Below are positions 44,125 through 50,419 of a DNA stretch of 64,000 nucleotides, one piece after another (the first letter of the stretch is position 1; each line of letters begins with the position of its first letter). Below the pieces are notes generated by a model. It saw nothing but the letters and a program-made list of their open reading frames with translations, had not been told where the DNA came from and did not search any database. The stretch comes from an uncultured Actinomycetota bacterium (GTDB taxonomy: Bacteria > Actinomycetota > Actinomycetes > Propionibacteriales > Nocardioidaceae): NCBI GenBank assembly GCA_963767345.1, contig CAVYDO010000004.1, positions 30,939 through 94,938 on the forward strand, given 5' to 3'. Both the position numbers and the translations under genes were made by a program.

Positions 44125-44161
44125 CCACGGGGCTAACCACGGGCTAACCACGCGGTCAACC
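44119..44161. repeat. Short tandem/inverted repeat at the convergent junction of Rv3235 and the MBL gene
   Basis: GGTTGACC...GGTCAACC termini enclosing repeated ACCACGGGCTA-like units. Confidence 0.6.
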
Positions 44162-45376
44162 AGGAAACCGGATCTCCAGGGAGGCCCCGCGAGCAACCGC
44201 GCGGGTGTCGTGGAGGGTGCACCGCGAGCCGTAGAGCGACAGGGTCCCGTCCGTGTCGGGCACGCTGTCCCAGTCGCCGTCATGGGTGGACACCAGTGCA
44301 TGCCGGTCCCGCCCGTCGGGGCTCTGGTCCGGCATGAGCCGGTCGAACAGCTCCTCGTAGGTGCCGTTGTGGCTGCCGTGGTGCGAGATCTTGACGAAGT
44401 GCACCGGCTCGAGCAGCCCCTGCTCGGTCATCTTCCGCCACGAGCCGAGCTCGGCGTCGCCGGCGAAGAGCAGCCGCCAGCCGCGCCACTCGAGCTCGAG
44501 GACCACGCTGGTGTTGTTGTTGGCCCGGTCGATCTCCAGGATCTGGCGGCGGGTGCCGTTGAGCCGCGACGCCTGCAGGTCGAAGAAGGCTCCCGGCTCG
44601 ACGCCCACCGGCGGAACGGACAGACCCGGCGCCGTCTCGCGGGTGTCGGCGTCGGCGGCCGCGGCCGCCGACGTGAGGACCGGCGCGCTCGCCTGCCTCC
44701 GGTAGTACGACGCCGTGTCCTCCTCCGGCGCCAGGATGCGCAGGGTTGCCTCGCGGAAGGGATGCCTCTCGTCCAGGCCGGTCGTGGTGCGGTCGACGTA
44801 GTGGGTCCGGTCGGCCGGGGCGATGCCGCGCAGATGGTCGACGTAGTCGCAGGTCCTCAGCCCCAGCGCGCCCGGCGGCAGCATCGTCGAGTTGTTGCGG
44901 ATCATCATCTCCAGCCACGGGTCGGGGGCGGCCCGGGCGAGCCGATGCGCGTCCTCCAGCGCCAGCTCGAGCGAGCGCTTCCGCTTCCTCGCCTCGGGGT
45001 GGTTCGCGTAGTAGTCGGGGTGGGCCGACCCGGTGAGCCACGCATGCCGAGCCGCGAGCTCGACACCTGCCCGCTTCGCGGCCAGCAGTCCCTGGACGTG
45101 ATCGAGGTGCTCGTGCGTCATCACATAGAGGTCGACGGTGCCGCCGGTGCGGTCGGCGATGTCTCGCACCACGTCGGCGAAGACCGTGTCCTCGTTGCCG
45201 TCACCGGCCAGCAGGTTCCCCACGTCGATGAGGAGGTGGCGGGTCACCTCGGCGATTGGTCTCGACTCCTCGCTCGTCCCTCGCGAGGGCTCGACCACCG
45301 GGCCGCGCTCCGGCACCGAGACCAGGATCGCGTCACCGAACCCGACGTTGTACGCGCGCACCACCAGGTCGCTCAT
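44156..45376 (-). CDS. MBL-fold metallo-hydrolase (ComEC/Rec2-like)
   Basis: NVGFGDAILV, THEHLDHVQG (HxHxDH), NNTSVV, FAGDAE, KISHHGSHNG; no signal peptide; ATGA overlap with the protease gene. Confidence 0.85.
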   Translation of the reverse strand: MSDLVVRAYNVGFGDAILVSVPERGPVVEPSRGTSEESRPIAEVTRHLLIDVGNLLAGDGNEDTVFADVVRDIADRTGGTVDLYVMTHEHLDHVQGLLAAKRAGVELAARHAWLTGSAHPDYYANHPEARKRKRSLELALEDAHRLARAAPDPWLEMMIRNNSTMLPPGALGLRTCDYVDHLRGIAPADRTHYVDRTTTGLDERHPFREATLRILAPEEDTASYYRRQASAPVLTSAAAAADADTRETAPGLSVPPVGVEPGAFFDLQASRLNGTRRQILEIDRANNNTSVVLELEWRGWRLLFAGDAELGSWRKMTEQGLLEPVHFVKISHHGSHNGTYEELFDRLMPDQSPDGRDRHALVSTHDGDWDSVPDTDGTLSLYGSRCTLHDTRAVARGASLEIRFPG

Positions 45377-47067
45377 TCGTCCCATCCCGCGAGGTGGAGC
45401 AACCGGTGGCTGCAGCGTAGGCCGGCGTCACCCGTGCCCCGGAGCCCGACACCGGCCACATCGTCGGGCTCGAGCAGGCCCTCCTGCTCCAGCTGGGCGA
45501 GGAGTCCGTCCCGTTCCCGGCGATGACCGGCGCCGGTCACGTCGCTGTGCACAAGAGCCAGGCACTCCCCCGTCGCCCACTCGAGTACGACGGTCGAGCC
45601 GGTCGGGACCACCCGGATCCGGCCGGATCCACCTGCGGCGTCCTCCGTGTCGTTCCAGGAGATCTTCATGATCAGCTCCCGCTGGACCGGCGCGGCTCCG
45701 TCCCGCTTGGGCCCGATCACCTTCGTGCTGTCGACGCGGGGAAGCACCGTGAACGAGAGGCCGTCGGGGATTCCCAGCGTCGCTCGGCGCTGGGTGACGT
45801 ACTGGTAGGCCGCCCAGTCGCTGTCGTGCAGCTGCGGCACCTGACCCGCCGCGACCCCGAGCTCCCGCGGTCGCGCGCTGTCGAGTTCGCTCGCTCCGCC
45901 CACGACGAGCCGCTTGACGAACTGTGCGGCGAAGTGCGCCCGCTGCTCGAGGAGGGCCGTGCTCGCGTCGGCGTCGGGACGCGTCGCGCGATCGGCCGCC
46001 AGGGTCGCCCTGCCGACGTCGGCGAAGCTGAGCTCTCCGGGCGGCAGGTAGTCGATCCCGCGCAGCAGGAGCCTGCGGAAGATGATCTGCGCCGTGCCGA
46101 GTGCCCTGTTGGCGGCCGCTGCCGGCGAGAGCGCGACACCGCGGTCGTCGGGCATCTGCTCCGCTTCGAACCTGGTCGCGAAGATGAAGCTCAGGGTGTC
46201 GTAGAAGATCGCGGACAGCAGCGTGCTGAGGATGTGGGGCCGCGCGCCGGCCAGCGTCGTCAGGGTCTCGTCGTTCCTCAGGTCCCGCAGCGCACGGCGG
46301 GCCAGGCCATCGGCCCCGGGACGCGCCATGCCGAACTCCTCGGCGATGGCGTTGAACGCGTTCGCACCGGCCAGCGAGTTTTCGCTGCGGGCCAGCACCT
46401 CCTCGCGAAGGCGCCTGCTGTCGAGCGCCATGATCACCGCGATCAGGTCGGCGACGGCCTCATGGATCGCGATCGACTGTGGTGTCGAGCTGTCGTAGAG
46501 CGACGGGACCACGGCGTCGAGCAGGGCGTGTCCGCACTCGTGCGCGACGATGTCGCGACTCAGCGCGGTGTGGACCCGGACGCCCGACCTCCCAGCGAAC
46601 GAGAAGAACTGCAGGCTCCGGGTCCCCCTGTCGTAGAAGGCGTTGGCCCACTCCCCGGCTCGGGGCACGACGAGAAGCTGCTCGCTCCCGAACGCCCACT
46701 CGACCCTTCTCCCCAACGCGTCGGGACCCTCGAACATGCGCACCGTCAACAGCACCGTCCCGAACGCGTTGACAGCGATATTCGCCGCGGAGGTCGCGTC
46801 GCCGTCGGCTTCATACCTCCCGGAGCGGGGGTTGGACCTGAACGGCGTGAACCTGGCCGGCGGTGGGGCCGGAGCGCCGGTTGCGGGGTCGAAGTCGACG
46901 ATCGCGAACCGTCGGCACGCCGGCCCGTCGAGGAAGCGGTCGTTGTTGTCGCCGGACAGCTCGAGCTCCTTGGTCTCTCGGGCGGCGTCGCCCGGGGTGC
47001 CCATCTCGGCGAGGGACACCGAGCAGTCCTGGATGAGGAGCTCCACCTCGGCGACGACGTCAGCCAA
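45373..47067 (-). CDS. Cytoplasmic gluzincin zinc metalloprotease (M4/M36-like)
   Basis: NAFYD, AHECGH (HExxH), HEAVAD (ExxxD); TTG at 47067 with GGAGGT RBS; no signal peptide. Confidence 0.78.
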   Translation of the reverse strand: MADVVAEVELLIQDCSVSLAEMGTPGDAARETKELELSGDNNDRFLDGPACRRFAIVDFDPATGAPAPPPARFTPFRSNPRSGRYEADGDATSAANIAVNAFGTVLLTVRMFEGPDALGRRVEWAFGSEQLLVVPRAGEWANAFYDRGTRSLQFFSFAGRSGVRVHTALSRDIVAHECGHALLDAVVPSLYDSSTPQSIAIHEAVADLIAVIMALDSRRLREEVLARSENSLAGANAFNAIAEEFGMARPGADGLARRALRDLRNDETLTTLAGARPHILSTLLSAIFYDTLSFIFATRFEAEQMPDDRGVALSPAAAANRALGTAQIIFRRLLLRGIDYLPPGELSFADVGRATLAADRATRPDADASTALLEQRAHFAAQFVKRLVVGGASELDSARPRELGVAAGQVPQLHDSDWAAYQYVTQRRATLGIPDGLSFTVLPRVDSTKVIGPKRDGAAPVQRELIMKISWNDTEDAAGGSGRIRVVPTGSTVVLEWATGECLALVHSDVTGAGHRRERDGLLAQLEQEGLLEPDDVAGVGLRGTGDAGLRCSHRLLHLAGWDE

Positions 47068-47866
47068 GGCGCCCACCTCCGCGGAGCAGAGCGCCGAGCA
47101 GGGCATCAGTCGCCAGCCAGGCGCCCGCGGCGCCCACGAGGATCACCGGCACTGGGTCGCGCCACGCCCTGGGGTGCCAGGCCTCCCACCAGGCCGCCAG
47201 CGACGCGCAGACCATCAGGACCGGGCTGTGCCCGACGGTCATCGCCATCATCATCGGTCCGCAGAGCAGTGCGCAGCGACGCCAGGTCAGTACGCCGGCC
47301 ATCGTCGCGGTCACCACCCCACGGCGACCTCCCGGCGCCAGCGCCGGCAGCCTCTGGCACTTCTCCAGCAACCGGCTGCGCCGCGCCGAGCGCAGCGCGA
47401 CGAGGGCGAGGCAGACGCATGAGAGCTGCCACCAGACGCTGCCCGGCGGGAACGAGAGCGTCCGGGCGAGCATGGCCCCGGCCAGGCCGAAGGCCAACCA
47501 CAGGACGGTCACCGTGGCAAGGCAGACGCCTCCCAGCCGGGTGCGCCAGCCGCGGAAGCTGGATCGGCCGATCGCTCCGACCGTGGGGACGGCCAGCGGC
47601 CACATCATGGCGACCACCATCAGCAGCCAGGTCGCGACCCAGGTCGGGCTCCAGGGGTCGACCGGCCCGGCATCCGGCAAGGTCACGGAGAGAGGGTGGT
47701 GAGCCGCGGCCGACTCGGTTTCGCCGTGGCCGTGGGCACCGACCGGCCACGGAAGAACCAGCGCCACCCACGCCGCCGCCGTACCGGCCAGCACGACCCG
47801 TGCGGTCGTGGAGCCGAGCGCCTCCGTCAGGCGCACCGACGATCGCGGTGCCTGCAGCAGGGTCAT
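47060..47866 (-). CDS. DUF2182 putative metal-binding membrane protein
   Basis: WLLMVVAMMWP, KCQ, CALLCGPMMM; His-rich loop AHGHG...HH; ATGA overlap with tyrosinase. Confidence 0.72.
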   Translation of the reverse strand: MTLLQAPRSSVRLTEALGSTTARVVLAGTAAAWVALVLPWPVGAHGHGETESAAAHHPLSVTLPDAGPVDPWSPTWVATWLLMVVAMMWPLAVPTVGAIGRSSFRGWRTRLGGVCLATVTVLWLAFGLAGAMLARTLSFPPGSVWWQLSCVCLALVALRSARRSRLLEKCQRLPALAPGGRRGVVTATMAGVLTWRRCALLCGPMMMAMTVGHSPVLMVCASLAAWWEAWHPRAWRDPVPVILVGAAGAWLATDALLGALLRGGGRLG

Positions 47867-49233
47867 CGCTGCTGCTCGTAAACCGTCACCTGCTCGACGT
47901 GAATCCCCCGATCCGGGTCGTCGGAGTCGGGCCGCCCGGCTTCGGGGACGAGGTTCACCGACAGCTGCCCGCCGGTCCATCCCTCCGCCAGCAGGTCGGG
48001 CAGGATGCCGGAGGCGTCCACCAGGTAGCTGCGCTCCTCCTCGGGTGGGGTCCCGAGCAGACCGAAGGTCGCGAACCTCCCGGCTCGGTGGGGCTCCTGG
48101 TCGGGCGCGGAGCGCACCTCGACGACGTACGCCGCATGCGGCTCGACCGCGCGCACCCCGGCGAACTCCAGGACCAGGCGAGTCGGTGGCGGGTCGTCCA
48201 GCCCGCGGGGTGCGGTGTGGAAGACGACATCGCGCTCCTCACCGGAGTCCAGGTTGAAGCTGGCAGCCACCGGCTCCCATCGGGGCTCGGCCTCGTCCAA
48301 GGGGATCCCGCCTCCCTGCATCGCCTCGCGAGCGGCGGCGATGGCCGTCGCGGCCGCGTCCGGCAGCTCGATCGACTCGTACTCGTAGTCCATCTTCGCG
48401 CTGGACAGGTCCTCGACGTCGTCCATCGTGTACGTCGAGGGCGACTGCTCGGAGCCGAACCAGAAGATCGCCGACCGCCACTGCGTGGCGAGGAAGGCCG
48501 ACGCCCCACCGGGGTCCGTCAGGCGAACCGAGCCCGGGAGCGAGAGCCACACCTCCCACAGCCGGTCGATGTTGGCGTGGTGCAGCCAGAAGATCGGGTC
48601 CTGGCCGGCCGTGGCCGGGCTCTGCATGAGTCCGCCGATGTCCACGTGCACCCAGTTGTGCGGCGCACTCTCCACGTCACCGAATCGGCGGTCGCGGTCG
48701 GTGCCGCCGAAGCCGACGTCCGGCACGCCGCCGACGAAGCGGGGCTCGGTGAGCGCAGGCACGACGTCGATGTCCTCGGCCGGGATGGGACCGTCGTTGC
48801 GGGTCGAGTCGAAGAGCGGGTTCGGCACGACCTGGCCGCCGACGGTCCTCGTGGGCACCCGGAACTCCGCGGGAAGGAATGCCGCGTCGGGGTTGTCCGG
48901 GTTGGAGTAGTCCCAGTAGGGCAGCCCCCAGCCGTCCTCGCCGGTGAGCCTCCGGACGGTCCCCTCGAACCAGGCGAGGTAGCCGCGGTGCCAGGCCAGG
49001 AAGAAGAGCGAGGCGTGCGCGCACTGCCCCCAGGCAGGGCGCGGCGGCGTACCCGAGGGGAATCCGTGGGTGTTGGCCGCCCACTGCCACGACTCGGGGT
49101 CCTCGGTGGGCAGGGCGCGCATCAGCGCGACGCCCCGGGCGTAGGTGTCGAGGACCGGGTCCCACTCCTGGGTCCGTGCGTCGGCCTCGTTGCCGAGCGT
49201 CAGTGTGGCGATGTCGTGCCGCGTCCGAACCAT
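47863..49233 (-). CDS. Tyrosinase/polyphenol oxidase with a C-terminal extra domain
   Basis: CuA: NTHG...QCAH...FLAWHR; CuB: PHNWVH...DPIFWLHHANIDRLW; YEY motif; no signal peptide. Confidence 0.92.
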   Translation of the reverse strand: MVRTRHDIATLTLGNEADARTQEWDPVLDTYARGVALMRALPTEDPESWQWAANTHGFPSGTPPRPAWGQCAHASLFFLAWHRGYLAWFEGTVRRLTGEDGWGLPYWDYSNPDNPDAAFLPAEFRVPTRTVGGQVVPNPLFDSTRNDGPIPAEDIDVVPALTEPRFVGGVPDVGFGGTDRDRRFGDVESAPHNWVHVDIGGLMQSPATAGQDPIFWLHHANIDRLWEVWLSLPGSVRLTDPGGASAFLATQWRSAIFWFGSEQSPSTYTMDDVEDLSSAKMDYEYESIELPDAAATAIAAAREAMQGGGIPLDEAEPRWEPVAASFNLDSGEERDVVFHTAPRGLDDPPPTRLVLEFAGVRAVEPHAAYVVEVRSAPDQEPHRAGRFATFGLLGTPPEEERSYLVDASGILPDLLAEGWTGGQLSVNLVPEAGRPDSDDPDRGIHVEQVTVYEQQR

Positions 49234-49411
49234 GGCCTTCTCCCCGCGTCTGTACGTCGAGTACGTCGGGTCCACGATCCTCGGACCGCGCGGCGATGCA
49301 CATGGCCCGAACGGGTCAGTTCGGCGAGTGCCGATCCCGACAACGAGCCGCCGCTCGGGTCAGCGCGGCGCTCGGCCTTGCCCGGTCGGCCTGGTCTGCC
49401 GTGCAAACTAG

Positions 49412-49456
49412 TTGACAGCACTCTCCTGAGGGACTAAGTTGGCAGCACAAACTAGT
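49412..49456 (+). promoter_or_regulatory. Principal-sigma promoter with an overlapping imperfect palindrome
   Basis: TTGACA (49412-49417)-N17-TAAGTT (49435-49440); ACTAAGTTG-N6-CAAACTAGT at 49433-49456. Confidence 0.65.
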
Positions 49457-49469
49457 CTGGGAGATCGAG

Positions 49470-50072
49470 ATGGAGCGGACGAAGCTCGAGTCGGCGGCGG
49501 CGAACTACACCTACCTGCGGGGACTCTTCCTCATCCCGTTGGGCGTGCTCCCGATCGTCAGCGCGTTGGGGAACACGGGTTGGGGCCCGCTGCGGAGCAC
49601 CTGGGTGTTCCTGGCGGTCGTGGGGCTGGTCGGGATCGCCTGCCTCCCGATCAACAGCTTCTACAACAAGCACTACGGCAGGCTTCGCCCCTCGGCGCGA
49701 CAACAGGCACGTGCCTCCGTCGCGGTCGTCCTCGCCATCGTGGTGGTCGTGGTGGGTTCGACGCTGCTGCGAAGCCGCGCGGACTGGTCCTTGAACCTCC
49801 CGGTCAACGCGACCGCGGTGACGTTGTCCCTGGTCGTCCTCCTCTCCTACGCTGCCGGCCGCGTCCTCAACACCCACCACCTGATCATCTGGGGGACCGT
49901 CCTGTTGGCGGGGGCGATCCCACTGTGGGACGGGGCGGACCCGAGCAATATCGGCCTGGCGATCGTGGGAGTGGCGATGATGGTGAACGGCCTCTTCGAC
50001 CACCTGCTCTTCGTCCGCACCTTCGGTACTCCCGCGGGCCTCGACGGCCAGGGCGGCCATGCCCGAGCCTAA
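49470..50072 (+). CDS. Hypothetical multi-pass membrane protein
   Basis: 200 aa, about 6 hydrophobic segments; overlaps the downstream regulator gene. Confidence 0.7.
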   Translation: MERTKLESAAANYTYLRGLFLIPLGVLPIVSALGNTGWGPLRSTWVFLAVVGLVGIACLPINSFYNKHYGRLRPSARQQARASVAVVLAIVVVVVGSTLLRSRADWSLNLPVNATAVTLSLVVLLSYAAGRVLNTHHLIIWGTVLLAGAIPLWDGADPSNIGLAIVGVAMMVNGLFDHLLFVRTFGTPAGLDGQGGHARA

Positions 50073-50373
50073 GCCCGAGCCGGTGCTCGACCGACTGGTT
50101 CACGAGCCCGGCCGGCTGGCGATCCTGACGGTTCTCTCCTCGGTGACCGATGCCGACTTCGTCTTCCTGCAGCGCGCGACGGGGCTGACCAAGGGCAACC
50201 TCTCCAGCCACCTCACCAAGCTCGAGGACGCGGGACTCGTCGCGATCGAGAAGCGGTTCGTGCGGAGGAAGCCGAACACCAATATCGCCCTGACCGGGTC
50301 CGGCAGGACGCGAGTCACCCAGCACTGGGAACAGCTCGACCAGCTCAGGCGCCTCTCGGAGCCGCCGCCATGA
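50059..50373 (+). CDS. Winged-helix transcriptional regulator (ArsR/MarR-like)
   Basis: LDRLVHEPGRLAILTVL...GNLSSHLTKLEDAGLV. Confidence 0.88.
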   Translation: MPEPKPEPVLDRLVHEPGRLAILTVLSSVTDADFVFLQRATGLTKGNLSSHLTKLEDAGLVAIEKRFVRRKPNTNIALTGSGRTRVTQHWEQLDQLRRLSEPPP

Positions 50374-50419
50374 TCGGCCGCAAGACCCGCCAGTGCTTGC
50401 TCGGGCCCGGCGTGCCTAC

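Follow-up and report, generated by a model that had tools for sequence, protein, structure and literature searches.

Within a 64,000-nt stretch of actinobacterial DNA (hereinafter, the window; GC content ~71 %), we identified a cassette of four overlapping genes that encode a tyrosinase (TYR), a membrane protein of the DUF2182 family, a metalloprotease (PROT) and a protein with the metallo-beta-lactamase (MBL) fold. Comparison with homologous loci shows that the cassette is built of two modules, namely the TYR-PpoB2 pair (PpoB2 being the DUF2182 protein), which usually occurs alone, and the PROT-MBL pair, which is the older core of the arrangement. We tentatively suggest that the cassette could be a composite conflict module, probably involved in anti-phage defense or programmed cell death, in which the protease licenses two effectors. 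Within this proposal, the licensing of the MBL, a putative pro-nuclease, by the protease appears probable, and activation of the tyrosinase by the same enzyme is a possibility that we hold with clear reservations.

All four genes are located on the minus strand. The tyrosinase gene (positions 47863-49233; 456 amino acids [aa]; ATG start codon preceded by GGAGAAGG) is followed by the genes for the DUF2182/PpoB2-type membrane copper chaperone (47060-47866; 268 aa), the thermolysin-fold (M4/M36-like) gluzincin protease (45373-47067; 564 aa) and the ComEC/Avs1a-like MBL-fold putative pro-nuclease (44156-45376; 406 aa). The overlapping junctions reported in a preliminary description of this locus, made from the DNA sequence without database searches, were all reproduced: stop and start codons share ATGA tetranucleotides at the TYR/DUF2182 (47863-47866) and PROT/MBL (45373-45376) junctions, and the DUF2182 and protease genes overlap by 8 bp (47060-47067). 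The latter overlap holds because the protease start is taken to be the TTG codon at 47067, a choice that agrees with the N-termini of the homologs and with the 564-aa database protein P0001. The same description considered the soluble proteins to lack signal peptides; consistently, a hydropathy check, which is not a signal-peptide predictor, revealed no N-terminal hydrophobic stretch in the tyrosinase, the protease or the MBL. The closest relatives of the protease come from Nocardioides.

The constant partner of the protease is the MBL. In 68 of the 80 loci fetched by protease homology (one genome per species), the MBL gene comes directly after the protease gene, and these loci span more than 10 phyla including archaea. 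The pair is found in Actinomycetota, Chloroflexota, Acidobacteriota, Myxococcota, Gemmatimonadota, Binatota, Rokubacteria, Coatesbacteria and Planctomycetota, as well as in metagenome-assembled genomes (MAGs) of Thermoplasmatota, Bathyarchaeota and Promethearchaeota. The pairwise distances of the two proteins are correlated (r=0.91, a value uncorrected for shared phylogeny), and tandem paralogous pairs, denoted PROT2-MBL2, are present in four loci (L004, L011, L056 and L098). In a long-read MAG (L074:7743-10700), protease and MBL occupy a single 986-aa open frame that represents either a real fusion or an indel. Fragmented TYR or PROT matches were observed in L020, L022 and L025, where assembly frameshifts or decay are possible.

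Single-sequence searches with the protease against Pfam (E<=0.01), NCBIfam, PADLOC and the PDB produced no match, and the protein was placed by family profile and fold search alone. An AlphaFold2 (AF2) model generated from a 63-sequence alignment (predicted local distance difference test [pLDDT] 91.8, predicted template modeling score [pTM] 0.93) yielded only two significant Foldseek matches, M36 fungalysin (7qp3) and M4 aureolysin (7skm), both with probability 1.0. Furthermore, the zinc-binding motifs H176-E-x-x-H180 (HECGH; 46528-46542, minus strand) and E203-x-x-x-D207 (46447-46461, minus strand) are invariant in the family, E177 of the former being the catalytic residue, and the family profile aligns both to the active site of thermolysin. 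Extra domains are present at the N-terminus (residues ~1-90) and the C-terminus (~400-564), the latter with weak NTF2-like Foldseek matches. Judging from the model, the protease is a thermolysin-fold enzyme, probably cytoplasmic and devoid of a propeptide. It shares the HExxH...ExxxD zinc site and the fold with M4 thermolysins and M36 fungalysins but, unlike these, lacks a signal-like N-terminus and an FTP/PepSY propeptide, carries the additional terminal domains, falls under the Pfam thresholds and is linked in an operon to its putative substrate. A paralogous protease (PROT2 of locus L100) retains a weak match to the Pfam M4 family (0.0019). The protease family is large, with 3929 representatives at 50 % identity for E<=1e-3 and 1368 for E<=1e-30, from both bacteria and archaea.

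The metal-binding motifs of the MBL are likewise invariant in the family alignment, including H88-E-H-L-D92-H93 (45098-45115), D307 (44456-44458) and H332/H333 (44378-44383), all on the minus strand. The best fold match of its AF2 model (pLDDT 88) is the beta-lactamase-like nuclease domain of ComEC (9ic4; Foldseek E 1e-13), and sequence comparison with the ComEC MBL domain in the PDB gave a similar value (3e-13). Among the PADLOC models, the protein matched LmuA (5e-13), RTasMBL (6e-11) and Avs1a (4e-7). In a profile-profile comparison with hhalign, it aligned over 303 columns (98.5 % probability, E 2e-15) with Avs1a-like MBLs adjacent to S8 proteases, the comparison set being drawn from the fetched loci by resemblance to the MBL of the L005 S8-MBL pair. 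The two halves of the MBL domain are separated by an insert of ~175 aa that contains low-confidence loops at residues 168-170 and 234-249 (pLDDT <50 in the latter). The first of these is an insertion carried by part of the family, and the second lies within a variable low-confidence linker (residues 229-254; 44615-44692, minus strand).

Immediately after this linker, the MBL contains the invariant motif PP-x-G-V-[DE]-x-G-A-F-[FY]-x-L (residues 255-267; 44576-44614, minus strand), in which P255, P256, G258 and V259 are conserved in all 54 MBL sequences and which may serve as a gate or as an element for docking or cleavage. The two independent lineages without an MBL, namely Agromyces with genome G584 and a clade of Acidobacteriota, carry the motif on the C-terminal tail of the protease itself, in the form PPPGV(D/E)xGAF(F/Y)DL. 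There it comes after a linker that differs even among close relatives, and the stop codon is reached 19-33 residues later (motif starts at L015:9681, L016:9711, L021:9783, L101:10681, L029:9579, L036:2686, L042:9573 and L054:8358). In L027, the motif is located in frame between the protease and an astacin-like domain. The retention of the motif in cis on the protease tail argues for a direct interaction between motif and protease, with the motif as docking site, cleavage site or pseudosubstrate. The motif precedes the catalytic D307 by 48 residues; in VcMBL, cleavage site 2 lies 44 residues ahead of D276 (10.1101/2025.11.14.688446; PMC12799240), a positional parallel that we consider no more than suggestive.

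The relevance of these features stems from three studies of 2025 in which Avs1a-type MBLs were characterized as gated pro-nucleases (Tuck et al., Science, PMC12799240; Evans et al., 10.1101/2025.11.14.688446; 10.1101/2025.09.03.673762). These are activated by a neighboring, co-evolving protease of the trypsin-like, caspase-like or S8 type, and the cleaved MBLs are Zn-dependent double-stranded DNA nucleases that act in abortive anti-phage defense, two linker sites being cut in VcMBL (PMC12799240; 10.1101/2025.11.14.688446). The cassette in the window resembles such nuclease-protease modules (trypsin-MBL, caspase-nuclease or 'canu', and S8-MBL) in combining an adjacent co-evolving protease with a ComEC-like MBL that bears an insert between its halves. 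It differs from them in that the protease is a zinc metalloprotease rather than a serine or cysteine protease, in that a fused or neighboring sensor (STAND, Hachiman or other) is lacking, and in that the MBL falls outside the Avs1a cut-offs, has its own invariant PPxGVDxGAF motif and is accompanied by the additional partners tyrosinase and astacin-like protease. The preliminary description proposed that the protease activates the tyrosinase 'and perhaps the MBL'. The second part of this proposal is the better grounded one because protease-activated MBL pro-nucleases have been demonstrated in defense (PMC12799240; 10.1101/2025.11.14.688446), and the order of importance has to be reversed: the primary, ancient partner is the MBL, and the tyrosinase pair is a later addition in one clade. 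Tuck et al. anticipate further classes of proteolytically activated enzymes (PMC12799240). Metalloproteases and tyrosinases appear neither in that paper nor in 10.1101/2025.11.14.688446, Kaur et al. 2020 and 2021 make no mention of tyrosinase, thermolysin or MBL, and our literature searches returned no paper that ties a tyrosinase or a metalloprotease to nuclease-protease modules.

The four-gene set also recurs beyond the window. A neighborhood check found TYR-DUF2182-PROT(-MBL), in constant order, in ~20 of the 80 protease-anchored loci, and all tyrosinase-containing loci belong to a single clade of the protease tree (24 rows, 18 with TYR; support of 99 in the SH-like approximate likelihood ratio test [SH-aLRT]). 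The presence of TYR requires 5 changes on the protease tree, against 16 expected under shuffling, from which a single gain and four or more losses follow. Since this clade spans three phyla, with one MAG each from Planctomycetota and Acidobacteriota, the cassette as a whole is transferred horizontally. Agromyces species and G584 retain an intact TYR-PpoB2-PROT array after loss of the MBL, and Kribbella and others keep PROT-MBL without the tyrosinase, so each partner can be lost separately. The cassette is rare, with 1 tyrosinase ortholog and 2 protease orthologs among 201 genomes of the family; a survey of 401 genomes of the phylum added one further full-length tyrosinase ortholog, again beside the protease. 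In all three sampled genomes that contain matches to both families, the two lie within 3 kb of each other. The recurrence of the four-gene set is far above chance, and inheritance and transfer of the cassette as a unit are supported.

An additional union of the two modules was detected in locus L100 (genome G313), where the gene order is astacin-like metzincin, PROT2 (31 % identity to the protease in the window), MBL2, tyrosinase, PpoB2 and transposase. The tyrosinase of this locus belongs to a different subfamily, and its closest relative (65 % identity) is a stand-alone gene. As judged from these relationships and from the different gene order, L100 appears to show a second, independent union of a paralogous protease-MBL pair with a TYR-PpoB2 pair.

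The tyrosinase itself (Pfam Tyrosinase, E 2e-36) comprises a core domain (residues 1-285) with six copper-binding histidines that are invariant in the alignment of 19 orthologs: H56, H73 and H82 (codons of the CuA site within 48988-49068) and H192, H196 and H218/H219 (codons of the CuB site within 48577-48660). The catalytic motifs of all three enzymes, described as intact from the window alone, proved invariant in the respective family alignments. The C71-x-H73 motif resembles the Cys-x-His that forms a thioether in type-3 copper proteins of fungi, plants and molluscs. The core ends with Y283-x-Y285 and is followed by a linker (residues 286-317) with the motif GG[GP]-x-x-[LFV]-D-[ED], the entire segment (48283-48387, minus strand) being a candidate cleavage region. 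In the same alignment, Y283, Y285 and D313 are invariant and G308 nearly so; the linker motif is confined to protease-linked tyrosinases and is missing from 19 stand-alone relatives. The remaining ~140 aa (residues 318-456; 47866-48282, minus strand) form a DUF7868-like C-terminal domain (with F390 in an invariant FGL), a possible lid of the active site, which scores 22.5 bits against Pfam DUF7868, under the cut-off of 25; the tyrosinase of L100 scores 91.5 bits (E 7e-26).

A profile search of the PDB matched the tyrosinase to molluscan hemocyanin units, plant polyphenol oxidases (PPOs) and latent fungal tyrosinases. The full-length match is 8b74_A (E 3e-55), aligned over residues 27-451 with the C-terminal domain included, and profile A7 matched the C-terminus of 8b74_A with an E value of 9e-4; a literature search on PDB entry 8b74 traced no paper. 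The succession of core, Y-x-Y, linker and C-terminal domain is that of latent pro-tyrosinases such as Agaricus PPO4 (4oua), Aspergillus MelB (3w6w) and the plant PPOs, with which the CuA Cys-x-His is also shared; unlike the plant KFDV domain, the C-terminal domain is DUF7868-like, and its shielding function is putative. We know of no dedicated activating protease gene for latent pro-tyrosinases or PPOs. Two further ideas on the tyrosinase were discarded. Similarity of the C-terminal domain to the substrate-binding beta-domain of Hsp70 (five weak matches, best E 0.003) was not reproduced by the family profile and is probably spurious. A common cleavage motif in the tyrosinase and MBL linkers was dropped since the motifs differ (GGGxxLDE vs PPxGVDxGAF) and the L100 tyrosinase lacks GGGxxLDE.

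The DUF2182 family (PF09948) bears the current Pfam name 'PpoB2 copper chaperone'. The protein encoded in the window scores 26.9 bits against this model, just under the gathering score of 28.7; its orthologs carry the PF09948 annotation, and the L100 homolog reaches 109 bits (E 3e-31). Hydropathy analysis indicates at least four transmembrane-like segments, and a His-rich stretch extends from H45 to H57 (47696-47734). That DUF2182 supplies copper, as surmised in the preliminary description, is established knowledge: in Marinomonas mediterranea, PpoB2 delivers copper to the tyrosinase PpoB1 (PMC2855505). The PpoB1/PpoB2 operon shares with the cassette the succession of a tyrosinase and a COG5486/DUF2182 copper-delivering membrane protein (PMC2855505); unlike that operon, the pair in the window is translationally coupled to the protease and MBL genes and resides in a rare accessory insert.

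The genomic setting of the cassette is that of an accessory element. Together with two non-conserved genes, it occupies a 6.3-kb insert (44125-50419) between a DUF6459 gene and secA, and in 6 of the 7 sampled genomes of the same genus, which are devoid of the insert, the DUF6459 gene directly abuts secA. The two additional genes are located on the plus strand, divergent from the cassette, and overlap each other; they encode a 200-aa membrane protein (49470-50072), for which no annotation was obtained, and an ArsR/HTH_34 regulator (50059-50373). Both were rejected as parts of the system because they are not conserved at other cassette loci. A search for direct or inverted repeats flanking the insert found none, nor any insertion scars, and a scan for promoter and terminator consensus sequences around the insert was uninformative. 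In a congener (L093; G209:C15), an unrelated gap of ~1.5 kb is present at the same secA/DUF6459 junction, which may be a recurrent insertion spot. A tandem CGTGGTTAGCCC repeat is present in the 31-bp spacer (44125-44155) that separates the MBL gene from the DUF6459 gene, the two being convergent.

At other loci, protease genes and genes of latent effectors are enriched among the immediate neighbors. The only recurrent Pfam families among the 136 immediately flanking open reading frames (ORFs) are Patatin (5), Peptidase_S8 (3), CHAT (3) and Peptidase_C14 (3), and PADLOC identified two Avs1a/LmuA-like MBLs in these positions, all these counts being lower bounds because ORF picking in high-GC DNA assigned the wrong strand in places. 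Other neighbors include Tle1-like and LCAT-like lipases, a serpin and a cluster of alpha/beta-hydrolase-like proteins. Nuclease-protease modules of the published kind adjoin the cassette at several loci, among them L005, where an S8-MBL pair lies ahead of it. The locus of Nocardioides cavernae (L098) has the order TYR-PpoB2-PROT-MBL-Patatin-PROT2-MBL2-EACC1-caspase, with the genes after the cassette at L098:12911-19221 and EACC1 on the minus strand. We count the presence of patatin, S8, CHAT/caspase and Avs1a-like MBL genes among the immediate neighbors, as well as the retention of TYR-PpoB2-PROT in Agromyces after the loss of the MBL, in favor of the conflict-module interpretation. The same applies to the linkage and correlated distances of PROT and MBL, the resemblance of the MBL to protease-activated nucleases, the motif on the protease tail, the confinement of TYR to a single protease clade, the separate union in L100 and the patchy occurrence of the cassette in an insert missing from congeners.

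In the clade of Acidobacteriota mentioned above, an astacin-like metzincin that bears a PPC domain takes the place of the MBL after the protease (L029:9526-10779, L042:9514-10746, L054:8066-9553 and L027:9588-10841, the last in one frame with the protease); this variant may represent a protease-protease cascade. A similar metzincin-PPC gene lies ahead of PROT2 in L100 (9278-10447, minus strand). In a clade of Chloroflexota (L047, L052, L059, L062, L063, L067, L074 and L077), the ORF immediately upstream, which ends at the protease start, encodes a conserved protein (~350 aa) that lacks Pfam matches, has a lipase-like HSLGT motif and is another candidate partner.

Under the proposed scheme, the cytoplasmic thermolysin-fold metalloprotease would be the licensing enzyme, and its ancestral substrate would be the adjacent MBL, a ComEC/Avs1a-like DNase held inactive by its internal insert. 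To open the nuclease, the protease would cut in or near the variable linker ahead of the PPxGV(D/E)xGAF(F/Y) motif. Within a single clade of the protease, upstream recruitment and translational coupling would have added a tyrosinase of the latent type together with its PpoB2 membrane chaperone, and the same protease would remove or displace the C-terminal domain of the tyrosinase. The freed cytoplasmic phenol oxidase would then generate quinones, reactive oxygen species (ROS) and protein cross-links, and the outputs of the system would be DNA destruction combined with quinone/ROS damage. With no separate sensor, the accessory domains or the oligomeric state of the protease would have to sense the trigger. 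The homologies, folds, intact catalytic residues, gene coupling, joint inheritance, two recruitments and accessory setting are observed here. As in the preliminary description, it is purely by inference that we arrive at tyrosinase cleavage, an intracellular quinone output and abortive defense, and likewise at cleavage of the MBL, its DNase activity, the latency of the tyrosinase, the trigger and the biological role.

A more far-reaching version, which we regard as doubtful, is a bacterial immune or death output akin to the prophenoloxidase response, in which the protease would sense the trigger through its accessory domains and cleave two targets, a gated DNase and a tyrosinase that bears a lid and is supplied with copper by PpoB2. 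An infected or damaged cell would thereby be destroyed by degradation of its DNA and by quinone/ROS cross-linking. The M4-like enzyme would be a general hub at which dormant effectors (MBL, tyrosinase, astacin-like protease, patatin lipase) can be exchanged for one another, with the PPxGVDxGAF motif as a portable element for docking or cleavage. The likeness to the arthropod cascade would lie in the logic of a protease activating a dormant type-3 copper oxidase as an immune output, and it is an analogy only: in arthropods, extracellular serine proteases act on a hemocyanin-type prophenoloxidase, whereas here an intracellular metalloprotease would act on a tyrosinase-type enzyme.

Several points weigh against a protease-licensed conflict module, among them that the above-mentioned correlation between protease and MBL distances is uncorrected for shared phylogeny. 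The MBL scores 33.7 bits against the NCBIfam Avs1a model NF041809, with a cut-off of 420 and a match limited to residues 283-349; because this score is far under the curated cut-off, the homology to Avs1a is remote. All-vs-all clustering of 3698 flanking ORFs revealed no conserved third gene or sensor gene, and no sensor domains were found in the upstream neighbors. The enrichment in defense islands that the preliminary description envisaged was not seen either: the second neighbors are housekeeping genes, and a classical defense-island signal was not found, so that the signal consists in tight clustering with protease and latent-effector genes. Furthermore, the mechanism of the published pairs, which employ serine or cysteine proteases, may not transfer to a metalloprotease.

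The remaining objections concern the tyrosinase. Of 20 other actinobacterial tyrosinase loci, 15 carry PpoB2 in the same two-gene order, with no such protease or MBL nearby, and S8, caspase, patatin and astacin genes are likewise missing from the vicinity; TYR-PpoB2 is therefore normally a stand-alone pair, and the tyrosinase family is independent of the protease described here. The stand-alone tyrosinases possess the same C-terminal domain, which is therefore no evidence of protease dependence. In L100, the tyrosinase gene is separated by 301 bp from MBL2 and a transposase gene is adjacent, so the adjacency could reflect island clustering. These facts, along with the separate losses of TYR (at least four in the TYR-containing clade) and MBL, and the occurrence of each pair alone far more often than together, favor an explanation under which TYR-PpoB2 and PROT-MBL are functionally independent modules that share accessory islands as they move and whose codon overlaps result from compaction. 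We consider this explanation rather improbable, given that gene order and tight junctions are kept across cassette loci in three phyla while the identity of the tyrosinases drops to ~40 % and that of the proteases to ~50 %, that the two families are adjacent in each sampled genome that has both, and that a second recruitment involved another tyrosinase subfamily and a paralogous protease.

The known biology of the TYR-PpoB2 pair, a melanin operon in Marinomonas that is widespread as a stand-alone unit, suggests another explanation, namely a pigment or stress operon that produces protective melanin, with the protease as a routine maturase of the pro-tyrosinase, the MBL as an unrelated housekeeping or metabolic protein, and no role in death or immunity. 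Fungal and plant latent tyrosinases are indeed matured by proteolysis (latent and active forms in PDB 4oua), and the MBL-less arrays of Agromyces as well as the missing defense-island signal would fit such a function. We nevertheless find it unlikely: about three quarters of the protease loci have no tyrosinase, stand-alone tyrosinases of the same type manage without the protease, the soluble components appear to be cytoplasmic, where constitutive quinone production would be self-damaging, and the immediate neighbors are of the patatin, caspase, S8 and EACC1 types.

The vacancy of the sensor position raises the question of whether the tyrosinase could serve the protease-licensed nuclease in a capacity other than that of substrate or effector, for instance by providing a redox, copper or phenolic input, by modifying the protease or the MBL, or as a post-mortem cross-linker. 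Its position as the first gene of the operon and the dissimilarity of its GGGxxLDE linker motif to the PPxGVDxGAF motif of the MBL are compatible with such a role. A general sensor function is, however, impossible because most PROT-MBL pairs lack a tyrosinase, and the other alternative partners (patatin, astacin-like and alpha/beta-hydrolase proteins) look like effectors; we therefore regard this explanation as quite improbable.

In 2025, the licensing of dormant death effectors by proteolysis became established as a major theme of prokaryotic immunity. To our knowledge, the proteases described in this role so far are all of the serine and cysteine classes, and the effectors are nucleases, hydrolases and pore-forming proteins. 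If the interpretation of the cassette as a protease-licensed conflict module is correct, a large protease family without a Pfam model would add a fourth class, the zinc metalloproteases, to the nuclease-protease pairs, in a sensor-less stand-alone form, and the short invariant motif would be a candidate recognition element. The copper oxidase would then be a possible new class of effectors, corresponding in bacteria to the prophenoloxidase response of arthropods. Should the link with the tyrosinase turn out to reflect pigment maturation only, a bacterial pro-tyrosinase would, with this protease, have for the first time a dedicated activator that is genetically encoded, which would be useful for tyrosinase biotechnology.

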